Shown here: piece after piece, positions 11,199 through 54,142 of the stretch
Position numbering within the stretch: the stretch's first letter is position 1
Layout of the letters: the number at the start of each line of letters is the position of its first letter
Virus record (IMG/VR): IMGVR_UViG_2657245091_000008
Origin: a virus
Taxonomy: Duplodnaviria; Heunggongvirae; Uroviricota; Caudoviricetes
DNA length: 64,000 bases
Reading direction: 5' to 3' (one strand)
Made by a program: the position numbers and the translations under genes
Notes under the pieces: model-generated
Database searches by the model: none
What the model saw: only the letters and a program-made list of their open reading frames with translations
Told to the model about the DNA's origin: nothing

Positions 11199-11549
11199 TT
11201 ACTCGGTAATAGTTTTGCAGTTGTTTTGGTTTAAGGCCAATCCAAGTTTGCTGGCGGCTAACTCATTTTCTGTGTGAGAACCAGCAAATACAAATCCTTG
11301 TTTTATCTTATTTACGGTGAAATATTTATTGTATATAAATGCCCAGACAAGTGAAGCTACCCAAGGACCAATTCCTGCAGTGAGAAATGCCAAGATTAGC
11401 ATCACAACGAACACCCCGATGAAAGTTATAAAGTCTTTCCTGAACAAAGCCGGGAAGGCACCAAAAAAGAACGTAGTCCAGGAGAATCCATAAAAGCCTG
11501 AGATGGACTCGCCTGTCCGAGGGTTTTCTAAGTTAATTTTAGTAGCCAA
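11199..11549 (-). CDS. Hypothetical inner-membrane protein
   Basis: 116 aa with two hydrophobic helices. Confidence 0.5.
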   Translation of the reverse strand: MATKINLENPRTGESISGFYGFSWTTFFFGAFPALFRKDFITFIGVFVVMLILAFLTAGIGPWVASLVWAFIYNKYFTVNKIKQGFVFAGSHTENELAASKLGLALNQNNCKTITE

Positions 11550-11717
11550 AGTTATTCATCCTTTAACGTAAAAAAACAAATAATTATAAAGCTGTGTGAG
11601 TGCGCTATTTTACTAATCTACACTATGTTATGCAATTTATTGGTATCAGGCCCCGGCTAGGCCGGGGCAAAAGCTATTAACTAACGATCCAGTCCATAGC
11701 AATAACATCCTCTGGAG

Positions 11718-12617
11718 CTAAATCAATAGCATGGATTTTCCCGTCCCGGATGGTGCGCCAGTGCTTTCGTGATCCACCTTCGGGCCATACCATACACCTT
11801 CAGGCCAGGAAGAACGACGACACACTGTTGCGTATCCAGTCCTGATCTTCTCTCTGGCGGTATGTAGTGACAGATTATCCTTTGGGCTTTCAGGCACAGG
11901 ATGGTGGATTGCCTGAAACATCCCCATCTTTGGATGATACCAGCGTTTATTGCGTGGTTCTGCCTCCGACATCACCTGCTTAAAGGCTTTCCGGAAGGGG
12001 GCCAGGGCCACAATGGAGCGTCGCGCAAGCAAACCATCTGGAGTTAAAAACTCATGCGTATCGGTGGGAATCCGGTAAGCGTTGACCAGGTTTCGGCATT
12101 TGGCTTCAGTCAGGCCGCATTTCGCCGCCAGCTGGCGGTAGCCAATGTAGCCTTCCGGCATATTGCCTTTCTTTATTTGCTCGACGGTTTCAGCGACTTT
12201 GGACACTTGTGCCGATACTTCGGCTACCTGGGCATTAACAGCGTTGATCCGGCGTTCATGCTCAAGATGCATTTGCGCCATTTCAGCCAGGATTTCGGCT
12301 TTTGATTTTAACGGTTCCCTGGCATTCTCCAGTTCGCGCCAGCGGTCCACCAGCCGGGCGGTGAATTCCGGAGAGAGCTGTGCGACGACAATGATACTAT
12401 CGCGCTTGCCTTGTTCGCCTTCGAAGACGTAAGCCTCGACACTACGGCGTAGTCCTAAGTTGTTGATTTTTTCGAAAACCTCAATTTGAGGAAACCGGAC
12501 AACGCCACCTTTGGCTAATGTCTCAATAGTGCGTTTCACATTATCATGACGCTTACCCACCAGTTCCGCGATCTCAATACTGGTCATTGTCGCTTTGCGA
12601 GAGATGGGCAGATTCAT
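11718..12617 (-). CDS. Phage antirepressor-like protein (Rha family N-terminus), copy 1, with aberrant C-terminal extension
   Basis: N-terminal TSIEIAELVGKRHDNVKRTIE (Rha-type); about 80 percent identical to 52798-53505 over shared length; reads on about 65 aa past where copy 2 stops; translationally coupled to icd-like gene. Confidence 0.7.
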   Translation of the reverse strand: MNLPISRKATMTSIEIAELVGKRHDNVKRTIETLAKGGVVRFPQIEVFEKINNLGLRRSVEAYVFEGEQGKRDSIIVVAQLSPEFTARLVDRWRELENAREPLKSKAEILAEMAQMHLEHERRINAVNAQVAEVSAQVSKVAETVEQIKKGNMPEGYIGYRQLAAKCGLTEAKCRNLVNAYRIPTDTHEFLTPDGLLARRSIVALAPFRKAFKQVMSEAEPRNKRWYHPKMGMFQAIHHPVPESPKDNLSLHTAREKIRTGYATVCRRSSWPEGVWYGPKVDHESTGAPSGTGKSMLLI

Positions 12618-12832
12618 CAGTGCACCTCCACGCAGTTCATCGGCAGATTCCAGTAATTGAGGATCTCCATCGCATCAAGAGTGAAGCGAGCAGCAAAAAT
12701 GCAGGGTTCTTCGGGAAGGTATGAGCGCGCTTCTGCTTCGGTTGTAGCCATGACGCAGATATACAGGTGTTTTTGGCAGGAATAGAAACGCCAGATAAAT
12801 TCAGAATGAGTTGGGGTAGGGATAGTAGCCAT
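12617..12832 (-). CDS. Icd-like host cell division inhibitor (immI-type), copy 1
   Basis: 71 aa; EFIWRF...TEAEARSYLP pattern; AAGGAGG RBS; ATGA overlap with downstream antirepressor gene as in P1 icd-ant. Confidence 0.55.
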   Translation of the reverse strand: MATIPTPTHSEFIWRFYSCQKHLYICVMATTEAEARSYLPEEPCIFAARFTLDAMEILNYWNLPMNCVEVH

Positions 12833-13017
12833 ATTGGCAGCCTCCTTTTGCTAAGTTAAGGAGCTACCGCGTGAGGTTCCAATCTCAATGGCGGTAGCAC
12901 TGACTGGGTTGGAACTACCGGCGCAAAAGGGAACCGGCCTGCCTTTCGGCAGCCCAGCCAGCACTACCATTGATCTCTGAGCTAAACGCTACGTATGGCT
13001 GTGCGATGGCATGACAC

Positions 13018-13039
13018 AAAAAAAGACGCTTTCGGCGTC
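13018..13039 (-). terminator. Intrinsic terminator (minus strand)
   Basis: On minus strand GACGC-CGAAA-GCGTC followed by TTTTTTT. Confidence 0.5.
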
Positions 13040-13145
13040 TGTGTCGCCTTTTGCATTATCCGGGGTTCCAATCCCGGCACCCGTTTTTCTAAGGTGCCGT
13101 AGAAATATACCCCACGATAATGCCAGGGCGCAACAGTCAGTATTT

Positions 13146-13313
13146 TATGCTTTGGCGGATTTCTTCCGGGCTTGCTTGCAGGCGTAGGCCATTGCTTTAG
13201 CTTTCACTTCATCCAGCTTCCCGGTAATCACTTCTTTTCCGAGAGTGACAAACCAGTCATAGCAACCGCCAGTAATGTTCTTGATTTGAAAGTTGAGGTA
13301 GCGAACAGTCATT
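13146..13313 (-). CDS. Small hypothetical protein (55 aa)
   Basis: ORF MTVRYLNFQIKNITGGCYDWFVTLGKEVITGKLDEVKAKAMAYACKQARKKSAKA with a minus-strand terminator about 100 bp downstream. Confidence 0.3.
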
Positions 13314-13628
13314 TTGACACCCCCAGCGCGAATAAAGAATGCAGATTATCGCGTGAGTGGTGGACGACGAGTGATGGGAAAAGACTGTAGTTGTTCATAG
13401 TGTAGTGACTCCTTGCTTTCGGAGCCGCCATCGACTGTTCCACGGTCTGGTGGCGGCGCAATAAAGGCTGGAACACCGTGAGTCAACGGGGGCTTTTCAG
13501 CCACCTATATTGCACCGCCATAGGTATGGCGGCGGCAATAATACGAAAAACTAAATAGTTTGTCTCAAAAAGTTGACCGGTGTGCCAATCGGTAGTGAAT
13601 GTACATCGGAGAAATTTTCAATTCAACT

Positions 13629-29842: not shown

Positions 29843-30499
29843 TTACTCCACTACAAACCAGTCACATGCCAGTAAATCAGCAACAGACGGCAACCAAACG
29901 TTGTCTATATTTTGCGCATCCTTCAATACAAAATGGTCGCCATAAGGAACCTGAATGTCGTGGAAATTGACGCACCCAGCTAGAACTAACCAGCAGCATT
30001 GCTTTTCGCCTTTCCACCCGCGTCGAGATACCTTTCTTCCTTCTTTCAACCACGTCAGCGCGACAGAAAAGTCGGCTGCTTCAAGGTCGATTTCTTCTTG
30101 TTGGGTAGTGATACCACCAGCAGAAATAGTTACGTCCCTGGCTGTAATGAATGTCACCCCATTGTGACCTTCAATCCTGAGCGATACCCCATTTTCGAAG
30201 ATGTCGTTAGTTCGACTAAAGCCATCTTTAAATTTCTTTTCTGATAAACAGGACAGATGACCTTCTTCATCAACGACAAGATAGCCGCCAACTTGTGGTA
30301 GGTGTTTTTGCAAAAACATTGCATCAACATAGATTCTTACTCCTTTGGGTTCTGTGACCTCGATTTCACCACAATTAGGCATCACAGGAGTAATACCACC
30401 GATGTATTTGATATTCTTGATTTTCGATGCACTAACGTTTTTGTGAGCTTTGTATTTGGGAAGGAACTTAAAAAGCTCTTTCGTTGCCATGTTATTCAT
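29843..30499 (-). CDS. Hypothetical protein with C-terminal DUF2829 (Tad2-like) domain
   Basis: C-terminus ALTWLKEGRKVSRRGWKGEK...VWLPSVADLLACDWFVVE fits the DUF2829 pattern as I recall it. Confidence 0.5.
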   Translation of the reverse strand: MNNMATKELFKFLPKYKAHKNVSASKIKNIKYIGGITPVMPNCGEIEVTEPKGVRIYVDAMFLQKHLPQVGGYLVVDEEGHLSCLSEKKFKDGFSRTNDIFENGVSLRIEGHNGVTFITARDVTISAGGITTQQEEIDLEAADFSVALTWLKEGRKVSRRGWKGEKQCCWLVLAGCVNFHDIQVPYGDHFVLKDAQNIDNVWLPSVADLLACDWFVVE

Positions 30500-37753: not shown

Positions 37754-38146
37754 CTACCAGCGAGACAAACGAACAACATGTTTCACTTTTGCGATCCACT
37801 TTCCGCGATAACTATTGATTACGGCCTGTGCCAGCTTCAAATTGGCTTCAAAATCAGCCTTACTACCATCAGACTCCACCAGCATTCCTCCATCTATTTC
37901 TGGTAAACATAGATAATCCTGCTCAACCTGCAGCGGCATTGATGGCTCTCTGAATGGCGTTACTTGCTCTGCTTTCCAGCGAAATCTAACCCTCATCCCC
38001 CTGGTGGTCATTACTAGATAGCCTGTTATAGTGCTTTTATGGCCCACATCAGTACGCGTGGCATTGCATGACACGATCTTACAGTTAGCGATAGACCACT
38101 CCATATTGGTGGCCTGTTGAGTGCTTAATTTGGTAGTCCCGTACAT
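37754..38146 (-). CDS. Hypothetical protein
   Basis: 130-aa ORF, ATGA overlap with upstream gene. Confidence 0.45.
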   Translation of the reverse strand: MYGTTKLSTQQATNMEWSIANCKIVSCNATRTDVGHKSTITGYLVMTTRGMRVRFRWKAEQVTPFREPSMPLQVEQDYLCLPEIDGGMLVESDGSKADFEANLKLAQAVINSYRGKWIAKVKHVVRLSRW

Positions 38147-38721
38147 CAGAAAGCCTCCCAGTCAGTCGCGATAATATCCACACCAGTTGCAAACCAGTCT
38201 GTCTGCGCCTGTAAATCCCCATTCATCATTACCAGGCGAGGCATCACCATCACATCGCACCCTTCCACAATATCGAATGCCTCTTCCGGCAAGAATTCGA
38301 AGAGCTTTTCTTTGCTGCCAATGCTGCCACGGAACATCGATATATAGCTCCCTTTAGGCCATGATGTCCGCCGGGCATCAAGCCCTTTCATCATCCAGTA
38401 AAAAGCCGAGGAAAAAGGGATATTCTTTTTGCCAATGATTACATTATTCGCTTCTGTGTACTTCAGGAACTTAACTAACCTTACCATTGACTCGGATAAC
38501 GCAACGTATGGCTCATGATTGATTGCTGACACGCTTACACCGTGCAATCCAACGCTTACCACTGTCATATCGCCGCTCTGTGCGGTTTCGATATTGACGC
38601 CTTTGCGAACTAATGAGGCGTAAAGTTCCTCTCGCTTTTGGGTCCAGCGTTCCCGCTTCCCTATGAAGTCACTCAAAATGAGATCTTCTTCTGCATATGC
38701 GTTATCGTTCGCCATTAACAT
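38146..38721 (-). CDS. Hypothetical protein with C-terminal DUF2829 (Tad2-like) domain
   Basis: C-terminus FYWMMKGLDARRTSWPKGSYISM...MPRLVMMNGDLQAQTDWFATGVDIIATDWEAF fits the DUF2829 pattern. Confidence 0.45.
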   Translation of the reverse strand: MLMANDNAYAEEDLILSDFIGKRERWTQKREELYASLVRKGVNIETAQSGDMTVVSVGLHGVSVSAINHEPYVALSESMVRLVKFLKYTEANNVIIGKKNIPFSSAFYWMMKGLDARRTSWPKGSYISMFRGSIGSKEKLFEFLPEEAFDIVEGCDVMVMPRLVMMNGDLQAQTDWFATGVDIIATDWEAF

Positions 38722-39175: not shown

Positions 39176-39251
39176 TGGTGGCCCCTACCGGATTTGAACC
39201 GGTGACCGTGCGATTATGAGTCGCCTGCTCTAACCACTGAGCTAAAGGGCC
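39176..39251 (-). tRNA. tRNA-Ile2 (anticodon CAU, ileX-like; elongator Met not excluded)
   Basis: GGCCCTTTAGCTCAGTGGTTAGAGCAGGCGACTCATAATCGCACGGTCACCGGTTCAAATCCGGTAGGGGCCACCA; canonical cloverleaf, near-identical anticodon arm to E. coli ileX. Confidence 0.8.
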
Positions 39252-39388
39252 AGATTACTGTTAATTCCGCTTACGCTTTTTGCCAGAACCGCGTAAGGCT
39301 TTTGCCGCTTGCTCGACCCCATATGCAACCACCAGCAAAAATAAAAATGTCCAACCAGGGTTCTTATCGGCAAACGCCCAAAAATTCA

Positions 39389-39712
39389 TCACTTACAGCC
39401 ACCTTGCATTTCCTCGGATAATTCATTGATTTTAGTGCTCAATAAGTAATCAAAGTAAAGATAAAACACAAAAGTAACGATAGTGCTTAAAGTGTCTGAA
39501 ATTGCGTATTTCAGCTCAGGAAGCATGACAAAGCAGACAAATAGCGGAAGAAATAACTGCACTATGCACAGGCTCTCCTTCCACAACCATCTATATCTGA
39601 AGTCTGACAACAAAAACTCCATTGCTTGAAACTTTATTAGATTGCGGTGCCTGGTGCCTCCAGGTGACGTTAACCAGTTAACAATTAACGCCGGGATGTT
39701 TGACTTAACCAC
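39389..39712 (-). CDS. Hypothetical small membrane protein
   Basis: 107-aa AT-rich ORF between tRNA genes, hydrophobic. Confidence 0.3.
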   Translation of the reverse strand: MVKSNIPALIVNWLTSPGGTRHRNLIKFQAMEFLLSDFRYRWLWKESLCIVQLFLPLFVCFVMLPELKYAISDTLSTIVTFVFYLYFDYLLSTKINELSEEMQGGCK

Positions 39713-39872
39713 TAAGGAGGATTGTTTTAACTGTTCCGCGTGCGCTTAGCCGCATTCACCGCAATGGTAAGAGCACTTGGCTGGCTGGGCGGCGATGACG
39801 CCTGTACGCATTTGGTGATCCGGTTCTGCTTCCGGCATTCGCTTAATTAGCCAAATACTCTTAACGTTGCGC

Positions 39873-39959
39873 TGGCGGAGAGTAATGGAATCGAACCATC
39901 ATCGCTTGCGCAATGGGACGGTTTTCAAGACCGCTTGAGCACCATGCTCCCTACTCTCC
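39873..39959 (-). tRNA. tRNA-Ser-like (anticodon UGA), type II with atypical D-arm
   Basis: Acceptor GGAGAGT/ACTCTCC+GCCA, anticodon arm CGGTCTTGAAAACCG as in E. coli tRNA-Ser(UGA), long variable arm, T-loop GGTTCGATTCC; D-arm non-canonical. Confidence 0.55.
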
Positions 39960-40323
39960 CGTTATTGTGGCGACCGGTGCTGATCTCCGGCTTGCGGTTA
40001 TTTCAGACTCTCACGGGCGTTTAATTGCCCCGCCGAACAGCTCTTTTCCGCAATAGCTGCAATGTCTTTCGCGCATCAGCCTGCGCATTCACCACAATGT
40101 TGAGAACACTGGTTGTCACGCTGCAACGCAACATTTATTCGTAGATTGGGATATGACCCCGTTACGCCAGTGTTCTCAACGTTGTAGTGCCGGTTACGGT
40201 TCCGGCCAGGCCTCTTCCTCAACGGGGTGTTCTCCATACGGACTACCGTTTATTGGTCGTTCCTGCGGTTTATGTTGTGAAGCCAGATGCTTATCTTCTG
40301 GTTGCTTCAAAGAGCTGCACTTC

Positions 40324-40412
40324 CTCACAACGGTAAGGGTACTTCGTAGGGATTCGAACCCTCTGCCAAGCTCGGCGATCTCCGACGTCGCAAAATACCC
40401 TTACCTGTTGTG
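40324..40412 (-). pseudogene. tRNA-like remnant (acceptor, D-arm and T-arm but no anticodon arm)
   Basis: T-loop signature AGGGTTCGAATCCCT and pairing acceptor-like stem, only about 65 nt core, enclosed by a 16-bp extended stem. Confidence 0.3.
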
Positions 40413-40413
40413 C

Positions 40414-40489
40414 TGGTGCCGATTAACGGACTCGAACCGCTGACCATTCGCTTACAAAGCGACTGCTCTACCAACTGAGCTAAATCGGC
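40414..40489 (-). tRNA. tRNA-Thr (anticodon UGU)
   Basis: GCCGATTTAGCTCAGTTGGTAGAGCAGTCGCTTTGTAAGCGAATGGTCAGCGGTTCGAGTCCGTTAATCGGCACCA; canonical cloverleaf. Confidence 0.8.
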
Positions 40490-40493
40490 AATT

Positions 40494-40580
40494 TGGTGGG
40501 GAGTGATGGAGTCGAACCACCCGAGTCGCAATGACAGTAGATTTACAGTCTACCCCGCTACCCCTACGGACTAACTCCCC
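40494..40580 (-). tRNA. tRNA-Tyr-like (anticodon GUA), type II with atypical D-arm
   Basis: Acceptor GGGGAGT/ACTCCCC+ACCA, anticodon arm GTAGACTGTAAATCTAC, long variable arm, T-loop GGTTCGACTCC. Confidence 0.55.
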
Positions 40581-40585
40581 TAAAG

Positions 40586-40662
40586 TGGCGATGGTGGGTG
40601 GATTCGAACCACCGACCGACAGCTTAGAAGGCTGCTGCTCTATCCTACTGAGCTACACCATC
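40586..40662 (-). tRNA. tRNA-Arg (anticodon UCU)
   Basis: GATGGTGTAGCTCAGTAGGATAGAGCAGCAGCCTTCTAAGCTGTCGGTCGGTGGTTCGAATCCACCCACCATCGCCA; perfect acceptor, D and T stems. Confidence 0.8.
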
Positions 40663-52568: not shown

Positions 52569-52592
52569 AAAAAGCCCCGGCCAGGCCGGGGC
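52567..52592 (-). terminator. Intrinsic terminator (minus strand) ending the icd/ant copy 2 operon
   Basis: On minus strand GCCCCGG-loop-CCGGGGC followed by TTTTTTC. Confidence 0.55.
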
Positions 52593-52600
52593 ATCACGCT

Positions 52601-52801
52601 TCAAGTCACGATCCAATCATTACCGACTATATCAGCCGTCGATAAATCAACTTCCCGGATCTGGAGTCCATTAATACAAAACCATCCGGTAGTAGAGTAA
52701 TTATCAGGCCAGGCCCATACACCAACACTCCATGCTTTACGGCGGCACACTTCAGCCTGTCCTTCCCTGATTTTTTTTACCGCCTGCATGATGTCCATCA
52801 C
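52601..52801 (-). CDS. Small DUF2829-like protein downstream of antirepressor copy 2
   Basis: 66 aa; VKKIREGQAEVCRRKAWSVGVW...ADIVGNDWIVT fits the DUF2829 pattern; terminator follows. Confidence 0.4.
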   Translation of the reverse strand: MMDIMQAVKKIREGQAEVCRRKAWSVGVWAWPDNYSTTGWFCINGLQIREVDLSTADIVGNDWIVT

Positions 52802-53505
52802 TCACCTCCCCAACCGATCACCTGGAATTGCCCCATTTTGGGGTGATACCAGCGTTTTCCTCGGTGTTCAGCCTCCGACATCATCCGGTTAAAAGCATTC
52901 ATGAAGGGATATAAGGCCACGATGGAACGACGCGACAATACCCCCTCTGGAGTTAAAAACTCATGCGTATCGGTGGGAATCCGGTAAGCGTTGACAAGGT
53001 TGCGGCATTTGGCTTCAGTCAGGCCACATTTCGCCGCCAGCTGGCGGTAGCCAATGTAGCCTTCCGGAATATTGCCTTTCTTTATTTGCTCGACGGTTTC
53101 AGCGACCTGGCTAACCTTTGACTCAACAGCATGAATCCGCTTTTGCTGCTGAACTGCATTCGCAGCCATTGCAGCGATCATCTCTATTTCGGTCAACGGC
53201 TGGCGTACTTGTTCTTCCAGTTCGCGCCAGCGGTCCACCAGCCGGGCGGTGAATTCGGGAGAGAGCTGCGCGACGACAATGATGCTGTCTCGTTTGCCTT
53301 GCTCGCCTTCGAAGACGTAAGCCTCAACGCCACGACGCAATCCTAAGTTATTGATTTTTTCGAAAACAGCCATTGGCGGTTTTCGGATAATGCTTCGAGC
53401 AACCATACGCTCAATACTACGTTTAACGTCAGAGTGTTGGCTTCCCACCAGCTCCGCAATCTCAATGCTGGTCATTGATAGTTTTTCGAGAATGCAGATA
53501 CCCAT
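52798..53505 (-). CDS. Phage antirepressor-like protein (Rha family N-terminus), copy 2
   Basis: MTSIEIAELVGSQHSDVKRSIE; paralog of 11718-12617; ATGA coupling with icd-like gene. Confidence 0.7.
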   Translation of the reverse strand: MGICILEKLSMTSIEIAELVGSQHSDVKRSIERMVARSIIRKPPMAVFEKINNLGLRRGVEAYVFEGEQGKRDSIIVVAQLSPEFTARLVDRWRELEEQVRQPLTEIEMIAAMAANAVQQQKRIHAVESKVSQVAETVEQIKKGNIPEGYIGYRQLAAKCGLTEAKCRNLVNAYRIPTDTHEFLTPEGVLSRRSIVALYPFMNAFNRMMSEAEHRGKRWYHPKMGQFQVIGWGGE

Positions 53506-53729: not shown

Positions 53730-54057
53730 AGTTACGGCCTCACTAACAGGTTTAACAACCTGCCACCCGCTGTCAAACAGGTGGCAGGACGTGACAGGGT
53801 TGACAGACTGGCGTTAGTGAAACCAGCAGGCCGAAGCCTCCCCATCACGCCCCACCATAATTCGGGCGTAACGCGGTTTACGGACACAAAAATACCGCAA
53901 TATCGGAAATCTGCGGTTGTCCGCACTAACATTCAGGCTGTCAAACCCGGTCGCAGAATTTGCTACGACGGCATGAATATAAGCCTGAAAACATGGAAGA
54001 TCAACTAAAAATTTCAGCAATGGATGACTTCAGTCGATGATGCAGATCATACATTCC

Positions 54058-54096
54058 GTTTTAGAAACAGCAAATTAATTTTCTAACATAAATCAT
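54058..54096. promoter_or_regulatory. Operator-like motif pair
   Basis: TTTTAGAAACAGCAAATTAATTTTCTAACATAAATCATC. Confidence 0.4.
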
Positions 54097-54142
54097 CGGC
54101 CGAGCATTTTCCGATCATTGGGATGTTTTGTAGACACACAGG

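Follow-up and report, generated by a model that had tools for sequence, protein, structure and literature searches.

Two immI-type antirepressor operons in a D6-like phage-plasmid and a one-base deletion read in one fused antirepressor gene

Whether an antirepressor gene that reads on into what is elsewhere a separate small gene records the decay of a duplicated immunity module, or a second domain that has been kept, is the question raised by a stretch of 64,000 nucleotides (nt) from the virus record IMGVR_UViG_2657245091_000008 (Caudoviricetes), which we refer to at its full length as the window. It contains two pairs of an icd-like gene and a Rha-type antirepressor gene (ant), here called copy 1 and copy 2, all of whose features lie on the minus strand. 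A first-pass annotation made from the sequence had compared both with immI of phage P1, had explained the longer antirepressor of copy 1 by loss of a stop codon with fusion or pseudogenisation, and had proposed that the two copies may answer to different antisense RNAs. Both the feature and, for the most part, its earlier description hold up, and the interpretation is supported in part. We consider it highly probable, taken as one joint explanation, that the window carries two paralogous immI-type antirepressor operons which are regulated independently of each other, that the fusion in copy 1 is the native form of its antirepressor, and that the copy present here has suffered a separate 1-nt deletion inside the fused domain.

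The window is evidently a D6-like phage-plasmid of the P1 family; phage D6 (MF356679) matches both module regions at 91-94% DNA identity, and the plasmid NZ_CP031917.1 of Escherichia coli O45:H2 FWSEC0003 is 99.9% identical to the copy 1 region. The open reading frames (ORFs) of both pairs were confirmed. Both icd genes score above the cutoff of NCBIfam NF033153 (copy 1: 49.7 bits against 25), that of copy 1 also matching phrog_1426 at E 1e-40, and both antirepressors pass the gathering score of 29.9 bits for an N-terminal Phage_pRha domain (Pfam PF09669), with 35.9 bits in copy 1 and 30.5 bits in copy 2. The two antirepressors are 71% identical over 238 residues (E 8e-122) and the two Icd proteins 41% identical (E 4e-14), scores that put the paralogy of the modules far beyond chance. 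Each operon follows the same order, namely a1/b1 sites, C4 antisense RNA, a2/b2 sites, icd-like gene, Rha-type antirepressor, a small domain of ~65 amino acids (aa) and a GC hairpin. At the DNA level, blastn aligns the two copies in ant, part of icd and the 3' hairpin only (for the hairpin, 11694..11650 against 52618..52574) and finds no similarity upstream of icd, which bears out the earlier observation that the leaders differ. The anatomy, homology, complementarity and conservation described below, and the lesion, are read from the sequence itself.

Two antisense RNAs with separate targets

The evidence that the two operons would answer to different antisense RNAs lies in the complementarity between each C4 RNA and its surroundings. 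The single-stranded a' and the loop b' of each C4 match exactly two sites in its own leader, with 7- and 8-nt exact complementarity at the expected upstream and downstream positions, that is, its own a1/b1 and a2/b2. In copy 1 the loop b' is CCUUUUGC and a' is GUUCCAA; in copy 2 b' is UCACUAAC and a' is CUGUCAA. The a' and b' of either copy find no match in the leader of the other, and the cross matches that do occur between a C4 RNA and the non-cognate leader involve stem sequence only. The proposal that the copies answer to different antisense RNAs, carried by two C4 RNAs with unrelated recognition loops, is therefore well supported at the level of base complementarity.

The features of copy 1 are as follows.

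13019-13097, minus strand: IsrK-like leader (Rfam isrK RF01394, 62.5 bits against a gathering score of 50, positions 1-77 of 77)
13065-13071 and 13047-13054, minus strand: a1 and b1 sites, inside the IsrK-like element, placed by complementarity to the C4 loops
13024-13040 plus a T-run, minus strand: stem of the intrinsic terminator of the leader (terminator scan)
12887-12974, minus strand: C4 antisense RNA (Rfam RF01695, 76.7 bits against a gathering score of 45, positions 1-87 of 87)
12876-12882, minus strand: a2 (UUGGAAC), exactly complementary to the C4 RNA of copy 1 only, with no complementarity to that of copy 2
12844-12851, minus strand: b2 (GCAAAAGG), overlapping the AAGGAGG ribosome-binding site of icd and complementary to the C4 RNA of copy 1 only
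12617-12832, minus strand: icd-like gene, 71 aa, whose stop overlaps the ant start (TGATG)
11718-12617, minus strand: Rha-type antirepressor as read, 299 aa (Phage_pRha; compared with D6 orf82)
11790/11789, minus strand: codon 276, where GGG has become GG by a 1-nt deletion when compared with every in-frame relative
11677-11793, minus strand: ORF that preserves, in a second frame, the final 37 codons of the fused small domain (VWPEGGSRKHWRTIRDGKIHAIDLAPEDVIAMDWIVS) displaced by the deletion
11650-11668, minus strand: 3' hairpin GCCCCGGC-CUA-GCCGGGGC, homologous to the copy 2 terminator, without a U-tail

The features of copy 2 are given in the same way.

53976-54004, minus strand: promoter-like site TTGATC-17-TATATT, aligned with the P1 promoter P1c4/P51b
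53930-53982, minus strand: c4-a1b1 element (Rfam RF03163, 55.2 bits against a gathering score of 46.7)
53938-53944, minus strand: a1, inside the c4-a1b1 element (complementarity)
53924-53930, minus strand: b1, beginning at the 3' edge of the c4-a1b1 element and extending 6 nt past it
53777-53862, minus strand: C4 antisense RNA (Rfam RF01695, 68.8 bits against a gathering score of 45)
53770-53776, minus strand: a2, identical to the annotated P1 a2
53740-53747, minus strand: b2 (GUUAGUGA), covering the ribosome-binding site of icd and the same in sequence as the annotated b2 of P1
53505-53729, minus strand: icd-like gene, 74 aa, 59% identical to P1 Icd
52798-53505, minus strand: Rha-type antirepressor, 235 aa (Phage_pRha), paralogue of the copy 1 antirepressor
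52601-52798, minus strand: small gene, 65 aa from its ATG (66 aa for 52601-52801), overlapping ant by GGAGG...TGATG
52574-52592, minus strand: intrinsic terminator GCCCCGGCCUGGCCGGGGC followed by U6 (terminator scan)

Copy 2 is clearly of the P1 type as far as its sequence goes. The 77-nt core of its C4 RNA is identical to the annotated C4 RNA of P1 at 77 of 77 positions, and all four of its target sites equal those of P1; the C4 RNA of P7 is distinct from it and differs at the known specificity positions. The exact copy 2 antirepressor occurs in several hundred public contigs and the exact small protein in at least 1000. As had been noted earlier, the copy 2 antirepressor stops and is followed by a separate small gene. 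All three gene junctions of the two operons have the form GGAGG-N(5-6)-TGATG with a 1-nt overlap of stop and start, so that the stop/start overlap described between icd and ant stands but the ATGA motif assigned to it does not; the arrangement suggests that icd and ant are translationally coupled in both copies, and that the small gene of copy 2 is coupled to its ant in the same manner.

Three observations concern copy 1 in its own right. A 39-aa ORF at 12851-12970 (minus strand), which bears the RefSeq name 'ash family protein' and matches Pfam Phage_ASH, lies on the same strand as the C4 RNA gene and almost entirely inside it, and is probably a protein call over an RNA gene. The P1-like phages RCS47 (103405-103819) and JL22 (96407-96736) each contain a second region, 88-94% identical to window 12684-13098, which covers the copy 1 isrK, C4 and 5' icd leader and in which RCS47 has no named gene and JL22 only a 'hypothetical protein'; a second C4-type element is thus not confined to D6-like plasmids. 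Codons 32-62 of the copy 1 ant gene (window ~12430-12525, in the Rha domain) form a hypervariable cassette among relatives that are otherwise 90% or more identical, and alignments of these relatives break or gap there; the cassette may be a specificity determinant.

The fused antirepressor and its deletion

The longer antirepressor of copy 1 is best understood from its relatives. D6 orf82 is a clean, in-frame ORF of 313 aa whose last ~65 residues (...ARERIKTGYAIVCRRASWPEGVWVWPEGGSRKHWRTIRDGKIHAIDLAPEDVVATDWIVS) are the counterpart of the small gene that stands alone in copy 2 and that D6 also has, in identical form, as orf17 (65 aa). Intact 313-aa ORFs are likewise present in AR_0119 and ETEC1732, and IMG/VR holds 18 loci with intact fused ORFs of 308-313 aa. 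The site of the deletion is found on 48 plasmids among 5,426 complete E. coli genomes, and in 47 of these it spans 92 nt and is in frame; the 91-nt allele occurs in one only, the sibling plasmid of FWSEC0003. Across residues 238-313, which comprise the linker and the small domain, D6 differs from three other alleles by ~20 synonymous against 7.5 non-synonymous changes, giving a dN/dS of 0.08-0.10 compared with 0.25-0.39 for the antirepressor core, and the fused part is therefore under purifying selection. Sequence comparison thus identifies the 313-aa fusion as the native, conserved and selected form of this protein, not as a product of decay.

What the window carries is this protein with one base missing. 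Aligned to an intact relative, its ant gene has two Gs at codon 276 (window 11790/11789) where the relative has three, so that it reads ...SSWPEGVW and then YGPKVDHES...MLLI, while the native continuation, VWPEGGSRKHW...DWIVS, lies in the ORF at 11677-11793. The first-pass annotation was right that the antirepressor reads on for ~64 aa, but only residues 1-276 (...REKIRTGYATVCRRSSWPEGVW), which take in the core, the linker and ~25 residues at the start of the small domain, are in the native frame, and the last 23 residues, 277-299, are a frameshift product. This 1-nt deletion inside the fused domain, which had been missed, is the only pseudogene-like lesion in copy 1. Once the G is put back, an ungapped alignment of the C-terminal 65 residues with the small ORF of copy 2 shows 42% identity (E 1e-19); the alignment that had been suggested as a check of their equivalence was run, and it finds the two related. 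The 299-aa product is encoded in a single public contig, JXVZ01000026.1 (GCA_000948555.1; 64,839 bp), from which the window evidently derives, and the one-G-repaired 313-aa protein (P0012) has an exact match in three other E. coli contigs. The displaced frame is fully open and has one synonymous difference from an intact relative, which makes the lesion, or the error, recent either way.

Of the two, an error is the less probable, though it deserves to be weighed: if the deletion arose in sequencing or assembly, the real plasmid has an intact 313-aa gene and copy 1 is not defective. It sits in a homopolymer, repair of a single G recovers a protein known exactly from elsewhere, and the open downstream frame, one synonymous site from its relative, is what an error would leave behind. 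The only other record that shares it, NZ_CP031917.1, is a MinION-based assembly rich in errors, in which 127 single bases present in the window are missing over 50 kb (45229-95228 against window 3335-53461), and these losses have fragmented darB and produced many false 'frameshifted' pseudogenes, including copy 2 ant. Where the two assemblies differ by indels, however, it is in the window that the gene is longer and stays open (as in ref, a simB-like gene and darB, whose 2278 aa are intact), as expected of a clean assembly, and the window sequence appears plainly the cleaner of the two. The ant deletion is among the few indels common to both of these separately deposited assemblies, the JXVZ01 draft and the hybrid FWSEC0003 assembly made from MinION and Illumina reads with Pilon polishing (PMC6787312), and a MinION error at exactly the same base by chance is unlikely. 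We therefore regard the deletion as probably a real mutation private to this E. coli O45:H2 lineage.

Such a mutation would leave much of the protein intact. The 299-aa product evidently keeps an antirepressor core equivalent to the whole 235-aa protein of copy 2, and with that core untouched its antirepressor activity would be expected to be retained, only the contribution of the C-terminal domain being lost.

A somewhat less likely explanation than a sequencing error is that the copy 1 ant gene is repeatedly inactivated because carrying two antirepressors burdens a plasmid prophage, the lesion in the window being one case of a recurrent, selected loss of function. Other frameshifts do occur in IMG/VR loci of the copy 1 type: L028 has lost 2 nt at codon 160, and L030-L032 and L034 have gained a C at codon 206 (C5 to C6), a change present in two different sequence backgrounds. 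The 16 ant genes of the copy 2 type that were examined are all intact. These loci are few, however, and do not count as independent cases: L031, L032 and L034 have an identical set of gaps against the reference. Every lesion is a small indel, at two of the three sites within a G- or C-run, and the contigs are of unknown quality; the frameshifts could be sequencing noise as well as recurrent inactivation. In most copies the gene is intact and evolves under purifying selection, and the lesion in the window spares the antirepressor core.

Loss of a stop codon, with read-through into the decaying remnant of a small gene, was the explanation offered by the first-pass annotation, and it would make the fusion itself the pseudogenising step. 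It agrees with the lesion carried by the window copy and with the greater diversity of the standalone forms (copy 2, P0043 and P0044): at 50% identity the small domain falls into three standalone clusters and one fused cluster, which indicates that the two-gene state is probably ancestral and the fusion derived. The strong purifying selection on the fused frame and the intact fusions in D6, in 47 of the 48 plasmids and in the 18 IMG/VR loci nevertheless speak against decay, and the linker of copy 1 (HHPVPESPKDNLSLHT) is not a mutated stop but a remodelled segment, 13 residues longer than the junction of copy 2 (GWGGE*M), so the fusion is old and no recent stop loss. As an account of this gene, stop-codon loss is very improbable. 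A programmed ribosomal frameshift that still yields the full-length protein would suit a downstream frame open to the native stop, but with no slippery heptamer at GUAUGGUAUGGCC, all relatives encoding the protein in one frame and the allele private to one lineage, it hardly merits belief.

Automated annotation has mishandled the gene. The Prokaryotic Genome Annotation Pipeline (PGAP) labels the ant gene of the FWSEC0003 sibling a pseudogene, and gives the same label to an intact 313-aa fused ORF in NZ_CP021537.1 (L004, 1428-2369), which is called 'incomplete; missing C-terminus'; in many RefSeq D6-like plasmids there is no feature over the C-terminal domain at all. For ant this seems to be an artefact of annotation to which the fused domain gives rise; a further instance of mishandling is the protein that PGAP calls across the C4 RNA gene. 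Reading the 'None' annotations of many RefSeq plasmids as widespread pseudogenes was considered and rejected, the one record examined (AR_0119) having an intact ORF. An 81-aa protein (P0004) was likewise rejected as a natural 'split' variant of copy 1, being a 3' remnant beside an integrase and an insertion sequence (IS) element. The practical value of the analysis is accordingly one of correction, in that an apparently decaying fusion is a conserved two-domain antirepressor with what is probably a private one-base lesion.

Working of the switch and its known relatives

In P1, genetics has established that C4 pairs with a2/b2 and blocks translation of icd and, through coupling, of ant. The annotation of P1 names C4, a1/b1 and a2/b2 and describes icd as 'required for expression of ant'. 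By analogy, C4 RNA in a lysogen of the window's element would pair with a2/b2 and block icd translation, the block would extend by translational coupling to the antirepressor and the small domain, and both antirepressors would stay silent. In copy 2 this would be achieved with a P1-type C4 and its sites, the small domain being made from a separate coupled gene. Copy 1 would instead use a terminator-bearing, IsrK-like leader of the Gifsy-1 type and different C4 loops, with the small domain fused to the antirepressor; its IsrK-like element, whose a1/b1 sites are complementary to the adjacent C4 RNA, would fit the role of a decoy. In the lineage of this strain, one G of the GGG run would since have been lost, placing the last 37 codons of the fused domain out of frame. 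Repression by C4, translational coupling, C1 as the repressor that is targeted and the effect of the truncation are all inferred here.

Besides the residual chance of a sequencing error discussed above, several points weigh against this account. A consensus promoter scan detected no promoter for copy 1. Copy 2 retains the P51b-like promoter (window 53976-54142), but upstream of it the P1 operator Op51 and the P51a segment are missing, the alignment with P1 and P7 breaking upstream of P51b, and the P1-type C1 operator ATTGCTCTAATAAATTT is not found in the 64-kb window at up to three mismatches, a D6-specific operator not having been searched for; promoter control may therefore differ from that of P1. 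That the antirepressors inactivate a resident C1, and that C4 acts in D6-like elements as it does in P1, is carried over from P1, and what the loss of the C-terminal domain would entail is a guess.

If the modules do not cross-react, a D6-like lysogen would be predicted to silence the incoming ant genes of either C4 type, including those of the P1 type, and its second module, copy 1, could let a D6-like phage that enters a cell evade a resident C4 of the P1 type. Such interplay between D6-like and P1-like elements is testable and unremarkable in kind.

The likeness to immI of P1 and P7 extends over the promoter, a1/b1, C4, the a2/b2 sites over the icd ribosome-binding site, icd and an overlapping antirepressor gene. 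The earlier comparison with P1 immI accordingly holds for c4 and icd, but not for the antirepressor, which is of the Rha family and has no detectable similarity to P1 Ant1/2 (BLASTP of Ant1 against the window antirepressor, E 0.36); DNA homology to P1 ends inside icd. There are further differences in that the P1 junction is ATGA rather than TGATG, that the window modules have a small extra domain or gene 3' of ant, that the module lies after repL and not before kilA-repL, and that P1 has one module where the window has two.

The closest relative is D6, a plasmid prophage related to P1, in which both modules occupy the same neighbourhoods and are annotated in GenBank as icd/anti-repressor pairs, orf83/orf82 and orf19/orf18, the latter with orf17 downstream. 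The locus is therefore of an already annotated kind, the D6-type dual immI. The window differs in the 1-nt deletion of its orf82 homologue and in the absence downstream of the pmgF-like orf81 of D6: the D6 match starts at window 11650 (position 151 of the query, window 11500-13400), just past the stop at 11677, and no ORF of pmgF size is present between copy 1 ant and a 116-aa gene. A second c4/icd region has been noted in D6-like plasmid prophages such as pYU39_89 (PMC6799933).

Copy 1 alone has a second known counterpart, the isrK-orf45-anrP locus of the Salmonella prophage Gifsy-1, in which IsrK precedes a short ORF, orf45, that is translationally coupled to the antirepressor AnrP (PMC4825925). 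The copy 1 leader matches isrK over its full length and contains an intrinsic terminator, and Gifsy-1 likewise has a processed RNA between IsrK and the antirepressor (PMC4825925). The two differ in that, in the published model, IsrK pairs with orf45 in trans and thereby serves as an activator (PMC4825925), whereas the copy 1 element bears a1/b1, and in that the coupled ORF of copy 1 is a clear homologue of icd.

The small domain and the Tad2 question

The small domain had been labelled DUF2829-like, a family now known as Tad2-like (Pfam PF11195), with a 73-position model and a gathering score of 25 bits. Tad2 is an anti-defence protein that acts against Thoeris as a sponge for gcADPR, with a fold of an N-terminal helix and an antiparallel sheet that assembles into a tetramer (bioRxiv 10.1101/2023.05.01.538930). 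Six of nine members of the small-domain family match the model at E<=1, over nearly its whole span, and among the members whose ranks are shown it is the best Pfam match for P0043, P0005, P0003, the D6 C-terminus and the copy 2 ORF and the second for P0044. The scores are 15.2 bits for the copy 2 ORF, 12.2 for the D6 C-terminus and 23.9 (E 6e-5) for the relative P0043, so that the label holds as a best or second-best match but always below the gathering score, and the repaired C-terminus of the window's own copy 1 has no PF11195 match. A motif pattern is common to the domain and Tad2, with ...G..v.RR.W... near the start and ...D....DW.v at the end, although the small domain is shorter than Tad2.

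AlphaFold2 models of the small domain are of low confidence (pLDDT 63.6 and 52.5); the predicted order of secondary structure elements, a helix, four strands, a short helix and a strand, is compatible with the published description of Tad2. A Foldseek search of these models against the Protein Data Bank (PDB) returned nothing at E<=0.001, sequence and profile searches of the PDB with the small domain gave no Tad2 match, hhalign against two Tad2 domains encoded elsewhere in the window gave a probability of 2% or less, and the PADLOC and NCBIfam libraries found nothing for the small protein. Homology of the small domain to Tad2/DUF2829 is plausible and unproven.

The family itself is tiny. A profile search of 1.84 billion representatives returned six matches and two word-indexed searches returned 9 and 15, all of them close relatives or fragments, and the members with a named host are all from Enterobacterales. 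Two divergent ones, P0043 from a Raoultella ornithinolytica plasmid and P0044 from contigs of ~90-110 kb, are standalone homologues (96 or 68 aa) that lie immediately 3' of a c4-a1b1 element and a C4 RNA, as at L009 2752-3291 and L011 2746-3207 and also in L010 and L012. These loci have complementarity to the C4 loop, of the b2 type, just upstream of the ATG, and contain neither icd nor ant; the Raoultella-type locus has no match in PLSDB. A small protein standing directly behind a C4 RNA without icd or ant is the sole fresh part of the locus.

The small protein therefore occurs in three C4-linked arrangements, alone, as a coupled third gene (copy 2) and fused to the antirepressor (copy 1), and its recurrence there suggests a function bound up with the switch itself. 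It possibly has an early anti-defence or regulatory role. That the domain is a distinct payload of C4-gated switches, and not an appendage of the antirepressor, is a tentative idea that we think more likely wrong than right. If it were a minimal Tad2-like sponge or some other early effector, the antisense RNA of the immunity system would keep an anti-defence function silent in the lysogen, and at infection or induction this function and the antirepressor would be freed together. That a small, possibly Tad2-like protein repeatedly lies where C4 would control it directly is the one lead in this locus that could grow.

Separately from the small domain, two genes of the window encode larger proteins with C-terminal Tad2-like domains that clear the Pfam threshold by a wide margin, one of 218 aa at 29843-30499 (minus strand; E 6.6e-17) and one of 191 aa at 38146-38721 (minus strand; E 1.1e-9), and the element likely carries two anti-Thoeris genes besides the small immI-linked domain. 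Four tRNA genes, found with Rfam, are clustered at 39179-40662 on the minus strand.

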